From the sequence record NC_010105.1: a DNA stretch of 64,000 nt; one strand, written 5' to 3'. Made by a program: the position numbers and the translations under genes. Of this stretch, positions 6,206 to 55,565 are shown piece after piece. Source of the stretch: Escherichia phage JS98. Below the pieces are notes generated by a model, which did no database searches, was not told where the DNA came from, and saw nothing but the letters and a program-made list of their open reading frames with translations. Position 1 is the stretch's first letter; the number at the start of each line of letters is the position of its first letter.

Positions 6206-6281
6206 TGGTCGAGACAGTAGGGATCGAACCTACGACCTACGGTTTAGAAGACCGTTGCTCTTCCTTCTGAGCTATGCCTCG
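6206..6281 (-). tRNA. tRNA-Arg (anticodon UCU)
   Basis: Hand-folded cloverleaf. Acceptor CGAGGCA/TGTCTCG, anticodon arm ACGGT-CTTCTAA-ACCGT, T-loop GTAGG-TTCGATC-CCTAC, encoded CCA. Confidence 0.85.
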
Positions 6282-6285
6282 TATT

Positions 6286-6360
6286 TGGCGGACATGCATG
6301 GATTCGAACCATGGACCAATTGATTAACAGTCAACTGCTCTACCGCTGAGCTACACATCC
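6286..6360 (-). tRNA. tRNA-Asn (anticodon GUU)
   Basis: Hand-folded cloverleaf. Anticodon arm GTTGA-CTGTTAA-TCAAT, T-arm CATGG-TTCGAAT-CCATG, encoded CCA. Confidence 0.8.
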
Positions 6361-6364
6361 AAAT

Positions 6365-6438
6365 TGGTGGCCCTGGGTGGAATCGAACCACCATCCAGCG
6401 ATTATGAGTCGCTCGCTTGACCGTCCAGCTACAGGGCC
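6365..6438 (-). tRNA. tRNA with CAU anticodon (elongator Met or lysidine-type Ile2)
   Basis: Perfect acceptor GGCCCTG/CAGGGCC, anticodon arm AGCGA-CTCATAA-TCGCT, T-arm GGTGG-TTCGATT-CCACC, encoded CCA. Lacks initiator features. Confidence 0.8.
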
Positions 6439-9524: not shown

Positions 9525-10278
9525 TTTTATTTCCTAATAATTTATCAATAGTAGTGTATAGTTCAGAAAGAGTGCCGTTATTTTCAACAACAACGTCACC
9601 AGGTAAAATTGGTAGACCCGCTTCAGTGATGTGCGAGTCTTGTACTTGACCGGTTTCAGCGCGAACTACATGAATAATCGTAGCACCCATCGCTCTGAGC
9701 GAATCAATTTCATGTGTTTGACGAACATCAGGTACGACATAGTATTTCGCATCAGAGTATATTTTATCAAAATAGTCTAAAGCGAACAACTTAACCCAAT
9801 ACATCTTATCAAATTGGTTAACAATAATATCAGTCCCAAGGGTCTGCATGAGACGACGTACTGACCAATTGTTATTTTTATTTATTACTTCAAATAGCTG
9901 GTCTTTTGTTTCTTCAGACAGATACTGGACCGGGGTAAGACCATAATGATATGCGGTAAGAACATCAATTCCTGGAATAGGAAGGATATTATTCAGTTTA
10001 ACAATAGCATGTTCAAAAATATCAACCACATCATATGGTTTTAAAGGAAGGATTTCTTCACGGTCGTAACCGATACCTTCAAAACAGTTAAAATCAAGTT
10101 TAGGCATATAACTACGGTCGAATACAGGGTCATCAGATATGTATTCATAAGCTTCAGCCAGATACTTTTTAATAGGACCAGCGAGTTGGAATTTTACGGA
10201 ATCCATATTCTCAATTACATAGTTAGCAACGGTATCCTTACCGCTACGTTTGATTCCTACAATTGATATTAGTTTCAT
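9517..10278 (-). CDS. 1: gp1 deoxynucleoside monophosphate kinase
   Basis: P-loop GIKRSGKDT. Synteny between 57A and 3. Confidence 0.85.
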
Positions 10279-10868
10279 TATTTTCTCATAGATGGATGCA
10301 TAGACATACGAGCCACACGTTGTTCGGCATACGAATCAATTTGTGGACGACCTGTAACTATTGTACCATCTATTTCTACAGCAAACGATTTGAAGTTGAA
10401 TGTTGCTGTAGCGATTATCGCAGGGTCGGAATCTTCTTTATAAGAGTACTGAATCTCGGAAAGGTCGGATGGCCAACCGCCGTAGTAATGAATGCTCATT
10501 ACGATTTTCTGTTTGTTGTTATCAAGAATGTGGAGGGTGATAGCCTCAGGCTGGCCTTTAGGATGCCAGGCTTCTGAATCATGGGTTACATAGTTGTTTA
10601 ATGACAGCATCCACTTATAAACGTCAAGCCATGATTTCAATTCACGGTCTACAAGAAAGTTCACAATCAACGGGTCGAATTCTACTGTAGAACCTGGCAT
10701 CTTAGCACGGTGTATGCCCTGGGTCGATCCTGGGACGTCTGAGACCGGAATATGGATACCAGGTAGTGTTACATCTTGCACGTTTAATTTGAATGCCTGC
10801 GTCATTCCTGCGTCACTAACCTCTAAGATAAAGTTGGTAGTGTTAGTTTGGTTAAATAAACCGTTCAT
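10278..10868 (-). CDS. 3: gp3 tail completion / sheath stabiliser
   Basis: From MNGLFNQTNTTNF... it aligns with T4 gp3 (LPGI.IPV, PGST.E.DPLIV.F). The ORF-track N-terminal extension overlapping gene 2 is discarded. Confidence 0.8.
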   Translation of the reverse strand: MNGLFNQTNTTNFILEVSDAGMTQAFKLNVQDVTLPGIHIPVSDVPGSTQGIHRAKMPGSTVEFDPLIVNFLVDRELKSWLDVYKWMLSLNNYVTHDSEAWHPKGQPEAITLHILDNNKQKIVMSIHYYGGWPSDLSEIQYSYKEDSDPAIIATATFNFKSFAVEIDGTIVTGRPQIDSYAEQRVARMSMHPSMRK

Positions 10869-10881
10869 ATGATTCCTATAT

Positions 10882-10907
10882 TGCTTAAGTCCTAGCCAGT
10901 GTATAAT
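10882..10907 (+). promoter_or_regulatory. MotA-box middle-type promoter pointing antisense into genes 2 and 4
   Basis: Plus strand TGCTTAA-13 nt-TATAAT, followed by GGTCCTAGG. The -10 region is identical to the uvsY promoter. Confidence 0.5.
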
Positions 10908-10953
10908 GGTCCTAGGTCTGTTCCATTCAATAACTGGCTGGGATAATAGATTA

Positions 10954-11781
10954 TTATGCGTTCTTCCATACTTTCTGAGCTGAGTAACGCTTACCTTTAG
11001 ATACAAATTGCTGAAGCGGAAGCATGACTACATTAGCCCAATCAGAAGGTTTTATCTCTACTAAAGGACCCTTGATATTTCCAGGGATATAAGCCTTAAT
11101 CATCACGTCAGCGCCAGCGAATCCTTTTACCTTACTCCAATCGATTTTTAATTTAGTCGAGTTCGTAATGGTAGGCGTACTCGCGTATTGCTTCAGCAAT
11201 TCTTCTAGAAATTGCTGGCGTGCTTTAGGCGGAATATAGTGTAAGTTCAACCCGTACATCAGATTATGCTTACCAAGCCCAAGATAAATGATTAAAGGAT
11301 ATTTGTCCCAGTAGGGTAATGTGTCCTTGTGTTTAGCATCATAGATATAAGCATAAAGCTTACCAGGAGATGGTTTAGATACCTGGTGTCCACGAATTCC
11401 TTTCTTTAATGTTTCTGTAAACCATTTAGCTGATTTATTGTTTACAGCAGCGCCTTCGTTAGCAATCTTATCACGAATACTCTTTCTAAAACTATTCACC
11501 AAAATTAATTGACGCTCAGCTTTGGTTAATTTATTGCCAGGTTTCTTCTGGAGTTTTTCGACCTGTACAGCAGTTTTAATTCGACTCGAGTATCGAGACA
11601 TCGCAGATGTAAAGCTAGAATACTTAATGCCTTTATCTTCAGCGAATTTCTTAGCCGAGACGCCTTTGGCCTTAGCTTTGGCATATTCAACACCTAAAGC
11701 TATCCATTGTTGCTCTGAACGAGTAGGCTTAGAACCTTTTGTGGTTTCAGTGGCCTCATTGATGTAGGAAAATATACTCAT
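10954..11781 (-). CDS. 2: gp2 DNA-end protector protein
   Basis: Synteny and size. Start set to ATG 11781 (ATGA overlap with the gene 4 stop). Confidence 0.8.
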
Positions 11782-12227
11782 CCTTTCCATCCTAATTTTT
11801 TCAGTGAGTTTTCAGTTATCAATCTAAAATTGATTCCCATTTTATCTGCTGTAGCTTTAGCAGCTTTCCATTTATCTTTATTTACACTCCATGTATAATG
11901 TTCGTTGATATATCTCTTTTTAGCGGCTGTAGTCATTTTAGCAGGAGCCGCTGGAGGATGGGTTTCTTTAAAAGGTTTGACTTCAAAAAAGAATTGTTGG
12001 CCGTTATCAAACTTAACCCAGAAGTCCATAAAATATCGACGTTTCTTTCCATCAGCATTACTAAAATACGGAATAACTACCTCTTCAGAGTTCCATTGGA
12101 CTACGTTAGGATGATTGTCAAGCCAACGCATGAGCCATGCTTCCCATGAGGAACGATATTGGATTTTCTTCCAGTCACCTTTATATTTTTGTAAGTTGGT
12201 AGGTTTAAATTTCCCTGAGTAAGCCAT
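11778..12227 (-). CDS. 4: gp4 head completion protein
   Basis: Synteny (divergent from 53), size, and a TATAAATA promoter at 12254-12261. Confidence 0.8.
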
Positions 12228-12238
12228 AGTTGCCTCCT

Positions 12239-12246
12239 TATAAATA
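12239..12246 (+). promoter_or_regulatory. late promoter TATAAATA (gene 53)
   Basis: Exact octamer 28 nt upstream of the ATG at 12274. Confidence 0.75.
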
Positions 12247-12253
12247 TTAATAT

Positions 12254-12261
12254 TATTTATA
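12254..12261 (-). promoter_or_regulatory. late promoter TATAAATA (gene 4)
   Basis: Exact octamer on the minus strand, 27 nt upstream of the ATG at 12227. Confidence 0.75.
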
Positions 12262-12273
12262 CTCGGAGGCCCT

Positions 12274-15451: not shown

Positions 15452-17410
15452 ATGGCTACTCCTACGAATTACCAATTAACAAGAACCGTTAACGCTATCC
15501 CAAAAGTATTTGTGGGAGCTACGTTTGAAGAAATTAAAAAGAATATTATCGATTGGCTTTCCAGCCAGGAAGAATTTAAGGATTACGATTTCGTTGGTTC
15601 TCGAATGAATATCCTTATTGATATGCTTGCTTATAATACTCTTTATATACAGCAATTTGCTAACACAGCTTTATACGAGTCTTTTATAGGAACGGCAAAC
15701 CTTCGTTCTTCGGTTGTCCAAGCTGCACAAGATAACGGATATCTTCCTAGTTCTAAATCAGCGGCAAAAACAAGTATTATGTTGACCTGTACTCAGGCCC
15801 TGAATGAAAAGAATATTCGTATCCCACGTGGTACTAAATTCTTGGCCTATGCTCGTGATACTTCAGCAGACCCGTATGCTTTTGTTACCACGGAAAACGT
15901 TATTGCCGTACGTGATGTTAATAACCAATATCTCCCTATTGTATCTTTAGCACAAGGTCGTATTATTCGTACCGAACTTAAGTATGACCCTAAAACTCCT
16001 ATTCTTATTCGTGACCCGGATATTGATAGACAAGAAGTTAAACTTTATGTCGATGGTGCAGAATGGACTAACTGGACTAATAAATCCATGGTTCATGCTG
16101 GTAGTACATCAACCATTTACTATATGCGTGAAACCGTAGATGGTAATACTGAATTCTTCTTTGGTGAAGGCGTTGCCGAAAAATCAGTTGCGGGTGGTGT
16201 ATTAGAAGCTAACTATATTGGTGGTTTAAAACCTGTTAAAGATGCTACCATTGTTATAGAATATCTTCGTACCGACGGTGAAGTTGCTAACGGAGCAGTG
16301 GACTTTAGTTATGCGGATTCTTTGGCATATATTACGGTTGAAAAAATTACAGAAAACTATGATGGGAACCCGGATTATGTAGGTGCTGATGGTGGTGGTG
16401 ACCCTGAAGATATCGAACGTATTCGTGAACTGGCTGTAGTTAAACGCGAAGCCCAGATGCGTGCCGTAACTGGTACGGATTATGATACATTCGTTTCAGA
16501 ACGATTTGGTTCTATTGTACAAGCAGTACAAACATTTACAGACCCAAATAAACCAGGTTACGCCTTTGTTACTATTAAACCTAAATCAGGATTGTATTTG
16601 ACTGCGGTTCAACGTGAAGATATCCAAAATTATCTTTCAGAATTTAACTTGGCGCCTATTACTCCTTCGGTTATTTCTCCAGACTACTTGTTCTTAAAGC
16701 ATAAAATTAAGGTTTCATATGCACTGAACAAATTACAGGAATCCGAACAATGGCTAACGGCTCAAATCCTTTCCCAAATAGACCGTTATTATATTAACGA
16801 AGTTGAAATATTCAACCATGGATTTGCCAAGTCTAAAATGCTGACTTATATTGATAATGCAGACCACAGTATCCTTGGCTCTTCGGCTACGGTAACAATG
16901 GTTCGCGAGGTATTAAACTTCTTCAAAACACCTGAAGCGGGTATTAAATACTATAATCAATACACCAACCGTTCTGTAACTTCTAGTGAATTTGAGTTCG
17001 TCCCAACAAACGTATCGGATGATATTAAATCTTATAACGTACGTATTGTTGCCACAGATAAAGACGAACGAGGCGATGGTAAAATGGTTATAGGTCCTTT
17101 CCGTCCAGGTGATGTAATTGAAAACCAATACATCCAACCTTATACCGGAGATGACTTCGATAAAATGGCAGCTCCTGCAGACCAATCGGTCTACTATGTT
17201 ATTGGCGAAATTGATTATTACTCAGACTTTATTTTCTGGGATATCGCCGCAATAGGCCTTACTTCCGACCGTTTTGAAGTCCAGTCTATTGAACTTTATG
17301 CAGGACCAGACCAAGACAACATCTTTACCAAAGACGGTTCTTTAATCGTATTTGAAGATGACCTTCGTCCTCAGTACACAACTATAGAGTTGGAACCAAT
17401 TACAATATAA
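15452..17410 (+). CDS. 6: gp6 baseplate wedge protein
   Basis: Synteny and size (652 aa). Confidence 0.9.
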   Translation: MATPTNYQLTRTVNAIPKVFVGATFEEIKKNIIDWLSSQEEFKDYDFVGSRMNILIDMLAYNTLYIQQFANTALYESFIGTANLRSSVVQAAQDNGYLPSSKSAAKTSIMLTCTQALNEKNIRIPRGTKFLAYARDTSADPYAFVTTENVIAVRDVNNQYLPIVSLAQGRIIRTELKYDPKTPILIRDPDIDRQEVKLYVDGAEWTNWTNKSMVHAGSTSTIYYMRETVDGNTEFFFGEGVAEKSVAGGVLEANYIGGLKPVKDATIVIEYLRTDGEVANGAVDFSYADSLAYITVEKITENYDGNPDYVGADGGGDPEDIERIRELAVVKREAQMRAVTGTDYDTFVSERFGSIVQAVQTFTDPNKPGYAFVTIKPKSGLYLTAVQREDIQNYLSEFNLAPITPSVISPDYLFLKHKIKVSYALNKLQESEQWLTAQILSQIDRYYINEVEIFNHGFAKSKMLTYIDNADHSILGSSATVTMVREVLNFFKTPEAGIKYYNQYTNRSVTSSEFEFVPTNVSDDIKSYNVRIVATDKDERGDGKMVIGPFRPGDVIENQYIQPYTGDDFDKMAAPADQSVYYVIGEIDYYSDFIFWDIAAIGLTSDRFEVQSIELYAGPDQDNIFTKDGSLIVFEDDLRPQYTTIELEPITI

Positions 17411-33730: not shown

Positions 33731-35713
33731 ATGGCTTTATTATCACCGGGCATTGAGCTCAAAGAAACGTCCGTACAGAGTACTGTCGTTCGTAACGCAA
33801 CGGGTCGTGCAGCGCTGGTTGGTAAATTCCAGTGGGGCCCTGCTTTCCAGGTAACTCAGATTACCAATGAAGTTGAACTGGTTGATTTGTTTGGAGGTCC
33901 TAATAACGAAGTAGCAGATTACTTTATGTCTGGTATGAACTTCCTCCAGTATGGTAACGACCTTCGTACAGTTCGTGTCGTTAGTCGCGAATTTGCTAAA
34001 AACGCATCTCCTATCGCTGGTAATATTGAAACCACTATTACTACGGCTGGTTCCAACTATGCTGTAGGCGATAAAATTAATATTAAATATAACCAAACTG
34101 TAGTCGAATCTGAAGGTCGTGTGACTTCTGTAGATACAGACGGTAAAATTCTTTCTGTGTTTATTCCGTCAGCAAAAATTATTGCTTACGCACGTTCTTT
34201 AAACCAGTATCCTACCCTAGGCCCGGCTTGGACTGCTGAAGTTACTTCCGCCTCTTCGGGTGTTTCTGGTACTATTACCGTAGGTAAAATTGTTACGGAT
34301 TCCGGTATTCTTTTGACTGAAGCCGAGAATAGTGAAGAAGCTATTACTTCTCTTGAATTCCAAGCGGCCCTTAAGAAATTTGCTATGCCAGGCGTAGTGG
34401 CCCTTTATCCTGGTGAAATTGGTTCTACTCTGGAAGTAGAAATCGTTTCTAAAGCAGCTTATGAAGCTGGTTCTTCTAAAATGTTGGATGTTTATCCTGG
34501 TGGCGGTACCCGTGCTTCTATTGCCAAGGCAGTATTTAATTACGGACCTCAAACAGATGACCAATACGCAATTATCGTTCGTCGTGATGGCGCTATCGTA
34601 GAATCCGTCGTACTTTCTACCAAAGAAGGTGAAAAAGACGTTTACGGTAATAACATTTATCTTGACGACTATTTCGCTAAAGGTACTTCTAATTACATCT
34701 ATGCGACCTCGTTAAACTGGCCGAAAGGATTTAGTGGTATCATTAATCTGTCTGGTGGTATTTCCGCCAACGATAAAGTTACTGCAGGCGATTTGATGCA
34801 GGGTTGGGATTTGTTTGCCGACCGTGAAGCACTCCATATTAACCTGCTTATTGCTGGTGCTGTTGCTGGTGAAGGCGATGAAGTGGCTTCTACTGTTCAG
34901 AAACACGTTGTGAGTATTGCTGATGAACGTCAGGATTGCTTAGCATTTATTTCTCCTCCTAAAGGTCTGTTGGTTAACGTTCCACTGACTCGTGCAGTAG
35001 ATAACCTTATCGACTGGCGTACCGGTGCCGGTACTTTCGATGCCAACAACATGAACATCAGTACCACTTATGCCGCTATTGATGGTAATTATAAATATCA
35101 ATACGACAAATATAACGACGTAAACCGTTGGGTACCACTGGCTGCCGATTTGGCTGGTTTGTGTGCACGTACTGATGATGTGTCTCAACCTTGGATGTCT
35201 CCTGCCGGTTATAACCGTGGTCAGATTCTTAACGTTCTGAAATTGGCAATTGAACCACGTCAAGCACAACGTGACCGCATGTACCAGGAAGCTATTAACC
35301 CGGTTGTTGGTTTTGCTGGTGGTGATGGTTTCGTATTGTTTGGTGATAAGACTGCAACTAAAGTTCCATCTCCGATGGACCACATTAACGTTCGCCGTCT
35401 GTTCAACATGCTTAAGAAAAATATCGGTGATGCCTCTAAATATAAACTGTTTGAATTGAACGATAACTTCACTCGTTCAAGCTTCCGTATGGAAGTTTCT
35501 CAGTACTTAGATGGTATTAAGGCACTTGGTGGGATTTATGAAGGACGTGTGGTTTGTGATACTACAGTGAACACCCCTGCGGTTATCGACCGTAATGAGT
35601 TTATTGCTAATATCTATGTTAAACCTGCTCGTTCTATTAACTACATCACGTTGAACTTCGTTGCAACGAGCACTGGTGCTGATTTTGATGAATTGATTGG
35701 ACCTTTAGTATAA
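33731..35713 (+). CDS. 18: gp18 contractile tail sheath
   Basis: Synteny and size (660 aa). TATAAATA at 33694-33701. Confidence 0.93.
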   Translation: MALLSPGIELKETSVQSTVVRNATGRAALVGKFQWGPAFQVTQITNEVELVDLFGGPNNEVADYFMSGMNFLQYGNDLRTVRVVSREFAKNASPIAGNIETTITTAGSNYAVGDKINIKYNQTVVESEGRVTSVDTDGKILSVFIPSAKIIAYARSLNQYPTLGPAWTAEVTSASSGVSGTITVGKIVTDSGILLTEAENSEEAITSLEFQAALKKFAMPGVVALYPGEIGSTLEVEIVSKAAYEAGSSKMLDVYPGGGTRASIAKAVFNYGPQTDDQYAIIVRRDGAIVESVVLSTKEGEKDVYGNNIYLDDYFAKGTSNYIYATSLNWPKGFSGIINLSGGISANDKVTAGDLMQGWDLFADREALHINLLIAGAVAGEGDEVASTVQKHVVSIADERQDCLAFISPPKGLLVNVPLTRAVDNLIDWRTGAGTFDANNMNISTTYAAIDGNYKYQYDKYNDVNRWVPLAADLAGLCARTDDVSQPWMSPAGYNRGQILNVLKLAIEPRQAQRDRMYQEAINPVVGFAGGDGFVLFGDKTATKVPSPMDHINVRRLFNMLKKNIGDASKYKLFELNDNFTRSSFRMEVSQYLDGIKALGGIYEGRVVCDTTVNTPAVIDRNEFIANIYVKPARSINYITLNFVATSTGADFDELIGPLV

Positions 35714-35751
35714 TCTATTATCCCAGGCTGTAATATAAAGAACCTAAAACC

Positions 35752-35777
35752 ATTATACCATGTGTTTGGTTACAGCG
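35752..35777 (-). promoter_or_regulatory. MotA-box-like middle-type promoter pointing antisense into gene 18
   Basis: Minus strand CGCTGTA-13 nt-TATAAT, followed by GGTTTTAGG. Confidence 0.4.
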
Positions 35778-35838: not shown

Positions 35839-35846
35839 TATAAATA
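35839..35846 (+). promoter_or_regulatory. late promoter TATAAATA (gene 19)
   Basis: Exact octamer in the 18-19 spacer. Confidence 0.7.
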
Positions 35847-44796: not shown

Positions 44797-45801
44797 TTAT
44801 GACACTAATTCAATCCATACGGCTCGTAAGGTATCTTTTACGCACTCAACGAGCTGCTTTTTAACTTCAACAGGATTTTCGGCATCAGTTAATTCTAATT
44901 CTTCACGGGCAGCTTCTTCAAGGATATCTTGAACTGTCAAGCCCATTACCTTTCCAAAATCCTTTTTAGATACTTCACCAATCTTACTGATGACATTATT
45001 AATGCGGTTAACAGTCACATAATCAGTGAATTGCCACATCAAATCCATATCATCTTGGGATAAAACCACTGCAGCTTTAATAGGCTTATCAGACTTTTTC
45101 TTCTCGCTGAATTTAGAGTTCTTACATTTAATCGCTACACGATTTCCATTAGGAAGCCAGGTAGGAATATCAGGTTTAAGTACAAAGCCTTCAGCCGTGA
45201 ATACTTTACCTTCTACCTTAGGAATAAAGTCTGTCGAGTTTGCAATAGTTAAGCCAGCGTTATCCACCGCAAAATTGTAATCTGGGATAACAGAATCAAA
45301 ATCATTAGGAAGTTTAATAAGGTCTTCAAAGCTACCAGTAGCCAAACATGGAGCTACCTTAAACTTATGGATAATACAGAAGGCTTCCATCAATGTATCG
45401 GTTAGAACAGATTCAGTGCCATCTTCCTTAGTAACTCGGATATCGAACACATAAAAGTCTTTATCACCGTAGTCCACATTCTTCTGGATACCTGGCCCAG
45501 CTAATTCGCCATAAATCTGGTATGACTGGTAATTAATCGATTCAATTAGATGTTGAACAGATTTAATAGAATCAGCGTAGTTCTTGAGTACAATTTCATA
45601 ACCATAGAAATCTTCAGCAGGGAGGATAGGGCCAGTGCGCTTGGCGCATGTGACTGCGTCACGTTCTATGATTAAACTAAAGTTGGTTCCATGAATCTTC
45701 TCACGTGCTACCCATTCACCACCAGTCAAACCGTTAGTACGGAGTTTTTCGATAAACTTACTGTTGTAGTGGTTTTCGAGACTGCTATATTTCTTGAACA
45801 T
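44797..45801 (-). CDS. rnlB: RNA ligase 2
   Basis: [20 protein letters not shown]...[10 protein letters not shown] contains the nucleotidyl-transferase motif I KxHG. 334 aa. Synteny after 24. Confidence 0.92.
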
Positions 45802-45887
45802 AAATCACCATAATAAATATAATTAAATAGAAGAGCTAGTAGTCTTCTGTCACCAAGCCAAATGGTTTAACGGAAGGACCTAGACCC

Positions 45888-45913
45888 ATTATAACACACC
45901 TAAATTTAAAGCA
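45888..45913 (-). promoter_or_regulatory. MotA-box middle promoter for rnlB
   Basis: Minus strand TGCTTTA-13 nt-TATAAT (with TGTGT upstream), followed by GGGTCTAGG. Confidence 0.6.
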
Positions 45914-50355: not shown

Positions 50356-50381
50356 ATTATACACTATTCATTTGAACAGCA
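50356..50381 (-). promoter_or_regulatory. MotA-box-like middle promoter for uvsY
   Basis: Minus strand TGCTGTT-13 nt-TATAAT, followed by GGTCCTATGG. T4 PuvsY is a classic middle promoter. Confidence 0.55.
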
Positions 50382-50382
50382 A

Positions 50383-50772
50383 TTAACCACTCTGTGAGAG
50401 CTGGATTCTAATTTGCTCTAATGTATCCGGGTCATCAACAATACTAAACTGGACGGTTACTATAATAGAGTTGTCATCATAAACAGGGGTAACGCCTACG
50501 GCAAGGGCAGAAATTCTAGGTTCGAAGTTCCGCACAGCGGAAACTATATTACGCTTAATGGTATCCGTAATTAATGGGGTGATATTCTCAAATAGTTGAT
50601 TACTGATATCACAACCAAATTCAGGCATAAAAGGGCGAGAACCTTTACGAGTAGTAATAATGCCTAACAAACTATTTTTTACTGCACGGGCCCCTGTAGC
50701 TTTAGCGACGTCTCTATTCCAAGACGTCCTCATTTCAGGGTCTAAATCTGAATACATTTTATCGATATTCAT
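50383..50772 (-). CDS. 25: gp25 baseplate wedge (LysM/gpW-like)
   Basis: Synteny and size (129 aa). Confidence 0.88.
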   Translation of the reverse strand: MNIDKMYSDLDPEMRTSWNRDVAKATGARAVKNSLLGIITTRKGSRPFMPEFGCDISNQLFENITPLITDTIKRNIVSAVRNFEPRISALAVGVTPVYDDNSIIVTVQFSIVDDPDTLEQIRIQLSQSG

Positions 50773-53839: not shown

Positions 53840-55565
53840 ATCTAATCAGAATAGTTTTCGTCGCAATAAACTGATTGAAGAAATGGCTCCTCAGCGTCGT
53901 GCTGAGGCGCTAGCCCAAACCCAGAACGACGAATTAGGAAATATAACAGAAGCTTTATCAGAAACCCAGGCGGCGTCTGAATTGCTCTCTGAAGTTGTTG
54001 AAACAAAGTCTAATCAGATTATTAATTCTATAGACCGAGTAGATAAAAGTGTTCAAGATGTTGTCGCCGGAACAGAATTAACGGCTGAAGCTATATCAGA
54101 GCAAACCCAACAATCTAAAGCTCTTTCGGATGCATTAAACGAAAAGATTAATAAGCTTTCTAATATGTTGGAGGCTAAATTCTCTGGTATTTCTATTCCG
54201 CCGGAAGGGAGCTCGTTAAAGGTTATTGAAGACTCTATTCCTGAAGAACCTAAGGCTGAAACTCCTAAAGTTCCTGCTGTTATTGAAGATATTCTTCCGC
54301 CTGAAGATAATAAACCTGACGCTGAATTTGTACCAGAGCCTCCTAAAAATTCGGATGAAGGTAAAGAAGGTGATAAGTCTTCTCTTTCCGATAAAATCGA
54401 AGCCCTTACAAAAATAACCGAAAAAGGATTTAAAGCTTCTATAGGCGTCGCTGATAGAATTTCAGGTATGCTTTTTAAGTATACTATTACTGCCGCCGCT
54501 GAAGCTGCTAAACTCGCCGCAGGCCTAGCCCTTTTAATATTTGGTATAGATGCTATTCGTGTATACTTCCAATATTTCATGGACCAATTTAATGAAGGAT
54601 GGAAAAAATTTAACGATAAGTTTAAAGAGTGGGGACCCGTACTTGAAGGCTTAATGACCTGGGCCAAGAATGCTGAAGCTATGTTTAGCGAAAGAAATTG
54701 GCTAGGTCTGGCTGAAGCTATTATTCGCGGTATGGTTAATCTTACCAAAAATATGGCACAACTGTTAATGCTCGGTATTTCTAAATTGATTTCTGCTATT
54801 TTAAGTAAAATACCGGGTATGGGTGATTTGGCTGAAAACGTAGAGGCATCCGCTTTAATGTCGTATCAACAAAATACCGGAGCCACTTTAGATGACGAAG
54901 ACCAAACTAAAGTAGCCAAGTACCATGATAGACGTTCAGCTGAGGCTTTAGAAACAGCCGAGAAAATGAATAAGAAGTATAAGGGTAAACCTGAGCTTAT
55001 AAACCAGGCAGAGAAATACGGTAACCTTACTAAAGAACAAGCCGACCAATTACGCGCTGGTGGAATTGACACAAGCTTCCGTGACCTCCCTGAAGAAGAA
55101 CGTTTAGAGTATTTTAAGAAACGTGATAAAGCCCAGGCTGATATTATTCGTTTAACTCAAACCGCCGATAATATAATGAAGCCTGATTCTAAAGATATCG
55201 AAAATGCCAAGGCATTTAAAGCGGATATCGAGAAACAATTGGCTGACCCTATTATGGCTAAAGGTGGAGCACCTAAGGACCTTAATATCCAGCAATTACT
55301 TGATAAGATGAATAAATCTTTAGAGAAATTTAATGAAGCTGAAAAGCCTAAACCTGCTTCTGTAGCGGAATCTCCTGAAAATACTCAGGTTAAAAAGGTT
55401 GACGAGCAAATGAGAGCAAAGGAAAATGCTAAATATAGTCAGCAAGCTCCAACTCAAATAAATCAGCAAACGAATATCAAGAAAACGAGTAAGACTAGTT
55501 ATAATTTACCACCACAGTCTTCCACTCCTGCTCCTGGTATGCGTCAAGCTACTAAAGTTAATTAG
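53829..55565 (+). CDS. 29: gp29 baseplate hub / tail length tape-measure
   Basis: Synteny and size (578 aa). Extended helical low-complexity sequence. Confidence 0.88.
   Translation: MKNESNQNSFRRNKLIEEMAPQRRAEALAQTQNDELGNITEALSETQAASELLSEVVETKSNQIINSIDRVDKSVQDVVAGTELTAEAISEQTQQSKALSDALNEKINKLSNMLEAKFSGISIPPEGSSLKVIEDSIPEEPKAETPKVPAVIEDILPPEDNKPDAEFVPEPPKNSDEGKEGDKSSLSDKIEALTKITEKGFKASIGVADRISGMLFKYTITAAAEAAKLAAGLALLIFGIDAIRVYFQYFMDQFNEGWKKFNDKFKEWGPVLEGLMTWAKNAEAMFSERNWLGLAEAIIRGMVNLTKNMAQLLMLGISKLISAILSKIPGMGDLAENVEASALMSYQQNTGATLDDEDQTKVAKYHDRRSAEALETAEKMNKKYKGKPELINQAEKYGNLTKEQADQLRAGGIDTSFRDLPEEERLEYFKKRDKAQADIIRLTQTADNIMKPDSKDIENAKAFKADIEKQLADPIMAKGGAPKDLNIQQLLDKMNKSLEKFNEAEKPKPASVAESPENTQVKKVDEQMRAKENAKYSQQAPTQINQQTNIKKTSKTSYNLPPQSSTPAPGMRQATKVN

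Follow-up and report, generated by a model that had tools for sequence, protein, structure and literature searches.

The question raised by this locus is whether the late-gene region of a T4-type phage harbors promoters that point against its own late genes and, if so, what such promoters would do. An earlier note on the 64,000-nucleotide stretch of Escherichia phage JS98 DNA considered here (sequence record NC_010105.1; the whole stretch is referred to as the window) had described four sites with the layout of T4 middle promoters, two of them facing the antisense strand of late structural genes. Our preferred reading, to which we attach a probability of roughly 60%, is that all four sites are middle promoters dependent on MotA and AsiA and that two of them start non-coding antisense RNAs, with cis-antisense or interference control as the preferred role.

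At 97-99% identity the window matches Escherichia phage JS10 and other Dhakavirus genomes (JS98-like, T4-type), and the gene layout was taken from the JS10 annotation together with the open reading frame (ORF) lists of the window. The genes that matter for what follows are:

Genes 1, 3, 2 and 4, minus strand (JS10 annotation and ORFs)
10278-10868, minus strand: gene 3 (tail completion protein), start codon 14 nt from the s1 MotA-like box
10954-11790, minus strand: gene 2 (DNA end protector), a late gene antisense to s1
11778-12227, minus strand: gene 4
Genes 53 and 5 onward through gene 24, plus strand
33731-35713, plus strand: gene 18 (tail sheath), antisense to s4
35839-35846, plus strand: gene 19 late promoter TATAAATA, in the sense direction downstream of the s4 element
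35899, plus strand: start of gene 19
44797-45801, minus strand: rnlB
50324, minus strand: ATG of uvsY
50383-50772, minus strand: gene 25

The four sites, denoted s1 to s4, are made up as follows:

10882-10916, plus strand: s1, TGCTTAA-N13-TATAATGGTCCTAGG
10882-10888, plus strand: MotA-like box of s1, TGCTTAA, 13 nt upstream of the -10 hexamer
10902-10907, plus strand: -10 hexamer of s1, TATAAT, with a GG discriminator next to it
10914, plus strand: predicted transcription start of s1, the A of CCTAGG, 7 nt past the -10 hexamer, placed by homology to T4
50381-50347, minus strand: s2 (putative uvsY middle promoter), TGCTGTT-N13-TATAATGGTCCTATGG
50375-50381, 50356-50361 and 50349, minus strand: box, -10 hexamer and predicted start of s2
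45913-45879, minus strand: s3 (upstream of rnlB), TGCTTTA-N13-TATAATGGGTCTAGG
45907-45913, 45888-45893 and 45881, minus strand: box TGCTTTA, TGT-TATAAT and predicted start of s3, with an 80-nt leader
35777-35743, minus strand: s4, CGCTGTA-N13-TATAATGGTTTTAGG
35771-35777, minus strand: MotA-like box of s4, CGCTGTA
35752-35757, minus strand: -10 hexamer of s4, TATAAT, with an extended -10 (TGG) and a GG discriminator; predicted start 35745

Coordinates and sequences proved to be exactly as given in the earlier note. The sites have in common a GCT-containing MotA-like box, 13 nt, TATAAT and then GGnnnTA(G/T)G; a perfect TATAAT lies 13 nt from the box in 4/4 sites, that is, each has a sigma-70 -10 hexamer within the range of 11-13 bp, and the exact 17-mer said to be common to s1 and s2 is indeed present in both (AGTGTATAATGGTCCTA). 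The placement of s2 and s3 upstream of uvsY and rnlB, respectively, is likewise borne out by the JS10 annotation and the ORFs: s2 lies directly past the gene 25 stop codon with the uvsY Shine-Dalgarno sequence and ATG 25 nt downstream, and rnlB begins 80 nt downstream of s3. Site s1 is located in the 85-nt spacer from the gene 2 stop (10954) to the gene 3 start (10868) and runs opposite to genes 3, 2 and 4, while s4, which lies in the gene 18/19 spacer with the gene 18 stop codon on one side and the late promoter of gene 19 on the other, faces gene 18; the orientations claimed previously, antisense to late genes 2 and 4 and to gene 18, are correct.

An arrangement of this kind is not expected by chance. 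The window contains 80 TATAAT hexamers, 4 of which are followed by the suffix TATAATGGNNNTA[GT]G where base composition predicts 0.028, corresponding to a Poisson P of ∼3e-8 for a motif that was defined post hoc. Allowing up to one mismatch, the suffix motif gives 5 matches against 0.98 in shuffled sequences, none of 100 shuffles reaching 5, and the pattern [TC]GCT[TG]NN-N12-13-TATAAT is found 6 times in the window against 0.46 in simulations.

T4 and JS10 genomes were assembled from annotated pieces, and the 58 mapped T4 middle promoters of Hinton 2010 (PMC2988021) were extracted. The same core occurs in three of the 58:

T4 PuvsY (origin oriF), mapped start 115371: TGCTTCA-N13-TATAATgaatctA
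T4 P34i (origin oriG, antisense inside late gene 34), mapped start 153011: TGCTTCA-N13-AGTGTATAATggtcccA, core TATAATggtcccA
T4 PnrdC.7: CGCTTTA-N12-TATAATggttctA

Transcription from all three starts at an A 7 nt after TATAAT (PMC2988021), which by homology places the starts in the window at 10914, 50349, 45881 and 35745. Relative to the MotA box consensus, (a/t)(a/t)(a/t)TGCTT(t/c)A near -30, s1 has TGCTTAA and s3 has TGCTTTA, and s2 (TGCTGTT) and s4 (CGCTGTA) have variant boxes, each of whose deviations is present in a mapped T4 promoter (TGCTGTA of PmobD.3 or CGCTTTA of PnrdC.7). By position s2 is the ortholog of T4 PuvsY/oriF. A scan of the whole JS10 genome for the core returned the four window sites and three more, or ∼7 copies per genome: the P34i ortholog, antisense inside gene 34; the positional ortholog of PnrdC.7 (nrdC.6 site); and an early-type promoter with a GTTTACA -35 element and an identical TATAATGGTCCTA core. 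Both motA and asiA are annotated in JS10, 97-99% identical to the window, and the two genes lie outside the window.

The window sites thus share with T4 MotA/AsiA middle promoters a GCT-core box near -30, located 12-13 nt from a sigma-70 -10 hexamer, a frequent TGn extended -10 and a start at an A 7 nt downstream. They differ in the variant boxes of s2 and s4, in that s1 and s4 have no downstream sense gene, and in a strongly conserved GG plus CTA(G/A)G suffix that is absent from the published consensus. A close parallel to s1 is T4 P34i/ori(34), an antisense middle promoter in a late-gene block that carries the AGTGTATAATGGTCC core as in s1 and is kept in JS10; P34i differs in being located within coding sequence and in being a proven plasmid and genomic origin, whereas s1 and s4 are intergenic. 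Because architecture and core are those of PuvsY, P34i and PnrdC.7, and because JS10 encodes MotA and AsiA, the four sites are very probably MotA-type middle promoters, with starts and MotA dependence assigned by homology, and s2 and s3 would drive the middle genes uvsY and rnlB.

One element of the original proposal has to be modified. The suffix had been taken to define a family of MotA-box promoters; the middle-promoter architecture of the sites stands, but the suffix is not a dedicated mark of MotA, since roughly half of the TATAAT sites with MotA phasing in JS10 and T4 are without it and one early-type JS10 promoter has it. In sigma-70 promoters the G-rich stretch next to the -10 hexamer serves as the discriminator, with which sigma region 1.2 makes contact, and the preferred contacts for the start and for core recognition are a pyrimidine at -1 with a purine at +1, and a G at +2. 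In the light of these preferences TATAAT-GG-nnyT-A-G can be read as a near-optimal sigma-70 core promoter, and this is probably what the suffix represents: a consensus -10, a GG discriminator, a T(-1)A(+1) start and a G at +2.

Site s1 is also distinguished by its conservation. The spacer is 90-100% identical in Dhakavirus and Kanagawavirus, and the core at 10896-10939 is 93% identical to that of the Kanagawavirus phages PEi20 and CIP9, as compared with 50-72% for flanking gene 3 and 75-88% for flanking gene 2; no other 60 nt within 2.7 kb are as well conserved as the non-coding core. Conservation extends into the region that would be transcribed initially:

10914-10954, plus strand: conserved, predicted initially transcribed region of s1, ending in box 2 (described below) and abutting the gene 2 stop codon

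T4 itself has a copy of s1, TGCTTTA-N13-TATAATGGGTCTAAGTCCCTTCCATTCAAT, at 75,968-76,020 on the plus strand, and an antisense box-N12/13-TATAAT-G is found in the corresponding spacers of Winklervirus CBH8, Karamvirus CC31, Gelderlandvirus STP4-a and Mosigvirus ATK47. With the hexamer as anchor for the spacers of eight phages from seven genera (Dhaka-, Kanagawa-, Tequatro-, Mosig-, Karam-, Gelderland- and Winklervirus), the only columns without variation are TATAAT and the G that follows, and GCT is found at about -30 in 8/8, offset by one nt in ATK47; in a separate alignment of the spacer, GCTT.A of the s1 box is invariant. Invariant GCT, TATAAT and G at fixed spacing in a spacer that otherwise varies is the signature of a promoter on the antisense strand. 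A pattern scan of IMG/VR gave 14 loci, which we assume to be orthologs of the gene 2/3 spacer. Jiaodavirus KpV477, where there is no gene 2/3 spacer, does not have the element, nor do RB49 and RB16, neither of which has gene 2 adjacent; neither RB49 nor RB16 is known to have MotA. Co-conversion with a homing endonuclease was rejected as the cause of this conservation, as the endonuclease gene is not present in PEi20 and CIP9 and as identity falls steeply, to 50-65%, in the part of gene 3 that adjoins the element. The one ORF that we found downstream of s1 has 14 codons, lacks a ribosome-binding site and is not conserved in T4. The T4 copy is not among the 58 mapped T4 middle promoters (PMC2988021), and our literature search found no genome-wide T4 start-site map. 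Taken together, these comparisons support s1 as a deeply conserved antisense promoter, T4 included, whose activity is predicted, and they support extending the promoter and antisense reading to T4 and five further genera.

By comparison, s4 has a narrower distribution. It is 94-100% conserved in 49 Dhakavirus-type records and recurs outside Dhakavirus in Gaprivervirus only, where UPEC01 has a counterpart, TGCTTTT-N13-TATAATggttctA, in the same 18/19 spacer; the 18/19 spacers of T4 and CC31 contain terminators and late promoters in place of an s4-type element. Sites s1 and s4 share a further exact 17-mer ∼30 nt downstream, missed in the earlier note, that we call box 2:

10938-10954, plus strand: box 2 at s1, CTGGGATAATAGATTAT, abutting the gene 2 stop codon
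35710-35726, minus strand: box 2 at s4, CTGGGATAATAGATTAT, overlapping the gene 18 stop codon (35711-35713)

No further copy of box 2 is present in the JS10 genome, and its identity at s1 and s4 only in Dhakavirus suggests gene conversion.

Structure in the RNA does not unify the sites. At s1 the -10 hexamer lies within an inverted repeat:

10891-10942, no strand assigned: inverted repeat CCTAGCCAGT / ACTGGCTGGG, enclosing the s1 -10 hexamer

The fold of this repeat, -25.9 kcal/mol on the plus strand (z -2.8) and -19.6 kcal/mol on the minus strand (z -2.0), is of weak significance, with one compensatory A-T to G-C change in PEi20 and CIP9, and at s4 there is none (z ∼0), so that RNA structure was discarded as a common feature. 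The predicted antisense leaders fold no better than shuffled sequences, Rfam covariance models gave no match at the sites (the window passes the gathering threshold only for three tRNAs), and no conserved terminator for the antisense RNAs was found.

Two rival explanations give the main role to something other than an antisense promoter. In one, the conservation is due to the late-mRNA strand, through an intercistronic hairpin and the translation-initiation region of gene 3 or gene 19, and the promoter motif is inactive or incidental. T4, ATK47, STP4-a and CC31 do have a hairpin just downstream of the antisense start, with covarying arms (CUUCCAUUC/GAAUGGAAG, UCUCUUCC/GGAAGAGA and CUUCCGG/CCGGAAG), and it is stronger on the late-mRNA strand (-19 to -21 kcal/mol, z -4 to -5.7) than on the antisense strand (-8 to -18 kcal/mol), its G-U pairs becoming C-A mismatches on the antisense RNA; some of the conservation downstream of s1 is therefore owed to the sense strand. 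The position of box 2 against the gene 2 and gene 18 stop codons, and the absence of the T4 copy of s1 from the mapped list, would also agree with this view. However, the invariant GCT, TATAAT and G occur at promoter spacing and outside the hairpin in all four of these phages, the Dhakavirus and Kanagawavirus spacers keep the promoter with no sense-strand hairpin (z ∼+1), and T4 gene 2 RNA reads are present at middle times, as discussed below, all of which leads us to regard a purely sense-strand explanation as improbable. In the other, the sites are ∼30-55-nt promoter cassettes that serve chiefly as recombination substrates for moving ORFs or homing endonuclease genes, a role with which promoter activity is compatible, in the manner of the PeSL promoter-stem-loop cassettes of T4-like phages (Arbiol 2010) and the repeated middle-promoter modules (PmSLs) of phage nt-1 (Comeau 2014, PMC4122927). 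As in those systems, near-identical promoter modules are repeated here and neighboring ORFs come and go: in relatives, the outer edge of box 2 is the exact insertion point of mobile ORFs at s1 as well as at s4, namely a seg-like endonuclease gene between genes 2 and 3 and, between genes 18 and 19, an HNH-like ORF that is unrelated to it and comes with an early promoter and a hairpin of its own; in JS10 the s3 leader is followed immediately by an additional ORF that is absent from the window. The cassettes may therefore double as recombination joints, to which the restriction of the box 2 identity to Dhakavirus would add. A related homing endonuclease gene at both loci is rejected as the source of box 2, as the inserted ORFs belong to unrelated families. 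PeSLs, by contrast, place a terminator hairpin beside the promoter and are clustered, in many copies, within hyperplastic regions; the present sites have no attached terminator stem-loop, fold weakly, lie in core late and middle regions and number only ∼7 per genome, on which grounds we do not count them as PeSLs or PmSLs. With s1 fixed at one core-genome position in seven genera and so few copies per genome, recombination is doubtful as their chief purpose.

Indirect evidence for a transcript comes from T4. Wolfram-Schauerte et al. 2022 (PMC9697503) prepared directional libraries over a T4 time course and counted reads by featureCounts defaults, which we take to be unstranded, in which case antisense reads add to the count of a gene. 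Their Table S2 gives a middle onset for gene 2 RNA and a late one for genes 3, 4, 53 and 5, while gp2 protein is late, like gp4, and genes 4, 53 and 5 are late at the level of RNA and of protein (PMC9697503). Gene 34, the host of P34i, resembles gene 2 in these unstranded counts in that its RNA is middle, its protein being late, and T4 genes 18 and 19, which are without an s4-type element, are late (PMC9697503). Genes 11 and 35 are also classed as middle (PMC9697503), with no antisense promoter known that would explain either. The middle class of gene 2 RNA, set against late gp2 and late neighbors, fits an antisense transcript of the middle period that does not reach gene 4, and the fit is an indirect one.

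The same timing bears on the alternative that the earlier note had offered for s1, a long-leader middle transcript that crosses genes 2 and 4 in antisense and expresses 53 and 5 early. Its orientation permits this and no strong plus-strand terminator was found before gene 53; however, a middle gene 2 with late genes 4, 53 and 5, in RNA and protein alike, argues against such a transcript, and a 1.3-kb untranslated antisense leader would, as is well established, be exposed to Rho termination. We consider it highly improbable. The main rival to antisense regulation is instead an origin-like role, because P34i, the only characterized antisense member of the family, is a replication-origin promoter and not a silencer. 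Sites s1 and s4 might then be origin-type promoters like ori(34)/P34i and ori(uvsY), at which the transcript, hybridized downstream as an R-loop, primes the leading strand or admits the clamp loader within late-gene blocks. OriF and oriG, the only T4 origins defined at the level of sequence, each consist of a middle promoter and a downstream unwinding element, and a persistent R-loop primes DNA synthesis (Kreuzer and Brister 2010, PMC3016281). Their promoters both have the core described here, and one of the two, P34i, is antisense within a late gene and has its ortholog kept in JS10; the middle-mode promoter required for origin function is present at s1 and s4 with the oriF/oriG core; T4 PuvsY and the promoters of the 2/3 and srd/modA spacers share ∼27/31 nt around the start; and most early DNA synthesis begins in late-gene regions (PMC3016281). 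Against this, the annotated T4 origins (AF158101) are at 16.8, 79.4, 115.3 and 152.9 kb, with none at 76.0 kb where the s1 copy lies, and there is no middle-mode promoter near oriE (PMC3016281). While s2 is positionally oriF, neither s1 nor s4 coincides with a mapped origin. By nearest-neighbor stability over +1 to +50, used to look for a downstream unwinding element, s4 and s2 rank among the 7-11% least stable genome windows, with s1 ranked at 34% and s3 at 70%; the metric is non-discriminating, as it ranks the true T4 oriG at 65%, near the genome average. Plasmid screens in T4 are not known to have recovered any origin other than ori(uvsY) and ori(34). An origin function for s1 and s4 is, on balance, unlikely. 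A broader version would unite the antisense middle promoters (2/3 spacer in seven genera, 18/19 spacer in two, and P34i) in one R-loop class of minor origins or clamp-loading entry sites that links early replication with activation of the late genes close by; this is a long shot, and were it true T4 would have at least two unrecognized members, at ∼76.0 kb (2/3 spacer) and ∼11.9 kb (srd/modA spacer).

We return, then, to antisense control. In the scheme that we favor, s1 to s4 would act as MotA/AsiA sigma-appropriation promoters built on a near-optimal sigma-70 core with the GCT box 12-13 nt upstream, and s1 and s4 would give rise to non-coding transcripts of the middle period that enter late genes 2 and 18, respectively, in antisense from the 3' end. 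These RNAs might then exert cis-antisense control, or transcriptional interference, on leftward read-through into genes 2 and 18 before late transcription begins. Promoter orientation is opposite to the target in both cases, and the transcript evidence is indirect and confined to T4 gene 2; a regulatory role, which we derive from orientation, from conservation by the 3' end of gene 2 and from the difference in timing between RNA and protein, is speculative, and so is the silencing of premature structural-gene expression suggested in the earlier note. A related case is the anti-late RNA of T4, known from classical hybridization as pre-replicative transcription of the non-coding strand of late genes and largely ascribed to leftward read-through. 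The s1 transcript would resemble it in being pre-replicative and in copying that strand, but s1 is a rare rightward (plus-strand) promoter. The early transcripts repEA and repEB of oriE (annotated in AF158101), antisense to gene 5, are likewise pre-replicative and antisense to a late gene, and differ in that we find no comparable small ORF downstream of s1.

The middle promoters of T4 and its two R-loop origins are textbook systems, and the list of 58 promoters is without a rightward promoter in the 2/3 spacer. The main interest of the present work lies in the prediction that T4 has one, unmapped and deeply conserved. A single -10 hexamer in that spacer offers a target for mutation with which to ask whether anti-late RNA has a function and whether origin-type promoters exist beyond oriF and oriG. 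Should s1 prove inactive, the invariant TATAAT in the 2/3 spacer would need a different explanation; if it is active, the DNA-end-protector gene of the best-studied of phages would be overlain by a conserved, non-coding RNA in antisense.

In relatives, box 2, the exact 17-mer common to the antisense middle-type promoters s1 (gene 2/3 spacer) and s4 (gene 18/19 spacer), has as its outer edge the exact insertion point of mobile ORFs at both sites. The inserts, numbered within the fetched sequence pieces and equivalent to window positions ∼10954 and ∼35710, are:

L001, 1451-2101, mobile ORF insert
L007, 1569-2219, mobile ORF insert
L017, 797-1484, mobile ORF insert
L018, 945-1487, mobile ORF insert

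QL01 and Kosakonia phage 305 carry a homing endonuclease gene of seg-like type (phrog_655) between gene 2 and s1, and a similar insertion is indicated by BLAST only in E33, dhabil and LQ5. The insert between gene 18 and s4, in QL01 and UP19, is an unrelated HNH-like ORF (phrog_5104); in QL01 an early-type promoter of its own and a GC hairpin lie ahead of it.

The gene 18/19 spacer of the Gaprivervirus UPEC01 (L040, ∼400-440) contains an antisense TGCTTTT-N13-TATAATggttctA promoter, so that this spacer has one in a second genus; in T4 and CC31 a terminator hairpin and late promoters take its place. Box 2 of s4, read on the sense strand, is itself a TATAAT at 35709-35714 (+) of the window (gTATAATctattat), with TTGATG 18 nt upstream, so that a sigma-70-like site and s4 are convergent and ∼45 nt apart; this resemblance may be due to chance. 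An intercistronic hairpin lies directly after the gene 2 stop in T4, at 76,006-76,053 (L008 ∼16006-16053), and also in the gene 2/3 spacers of L035, L036 and L037. Its arms covary between genera, and of the two strands the late-mRNA strand gives by far the more stable fold. Dhakavirus, to which JS98 belongs, and Kanagawavirus are without it.

The conserved suffix (core) following TATAAT is not tied to MotA boxes, because in the close relative JS10 an early-type promoter upstream of gene 55.2 carries the TATAATGGTCCTAcGG core, identical to that of s1 and of the uvsY promoter s2. This promoter and three imperfect matches to TATAATGGTCCTAGG in the window are:

JS10 39,035 (L014), -, outside the window, early-type promoter upstream of gene 55.2 (GTTTACA, 17 nt, TATAAT)
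583-597, +, TATAATGGTCCTAGG with 3 mismatches, no perfect TATAAT
17080-17094, +, TATAATGGTCCTAGG with 3 mismatches, no perfect TATAAT
54916-54930, -, TATAATGGTCCTAGG with 3 mismatches, no perfect TATAAT

Since TATAATGGTCCTAGG at ≤3 mismatches has 7 matches in the window versus 1.76 expected, 4 of the 7 being real sites, these three were taken as chance.

The srd/modA spacer, which lies outside the window, holds another predicted rightward promoter of middle type, the second of its kind, conserved in T4 and JS10:

T4 11,866-11,897 (L010), +, TGCTTTA-N12-TATAATgaatctAAGTCCTTCCATT
JS10 11,138-11,170 (L015), +, TGCTTTA-N12-TATAATgaatcAagg

Its orientation is antisense to the early genes modA and modB. 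Around the start the T4 copy is identical to the mapped promoter PuvsY at ∼27 of 31 nt, and it has no entry among the 58 mapped T4 middle promoters. As with T4 genes 2 and 34, RNA onset of the late structural T4 genes 11 and 35 is classed as middle, from unstranded counts (PMC9697503, Table S2); no antisense promoter accounting for this class was found.

Two further features were noted in the window:

12240-12262, +/-, two late promoters back to back in the divergent spacer between genes 4 and 53, each strand reading TATAAATA
6209-6438, -, three tRNAs, scoring 63-71 bits as Rfam tRNA

The paired late promoters are an ordinary T4-type arrangement, and the JS10 counterparts of the tRNAs are tRNA-Arg, tRNA-Asn and tRNA-Met.

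At s3, the promoter upstream of rnlB, JS10 has a 122-aa hypothetical ORF (108,887-109,255; L003 46888-47256) between the leader and rnlB, whereas in the window (45801-45881) this ORF is absent and the 80-nt s3 leader runs directly into rnlB. The difference is an ORF gain or loss immediately beside the s3 promoter cassette.
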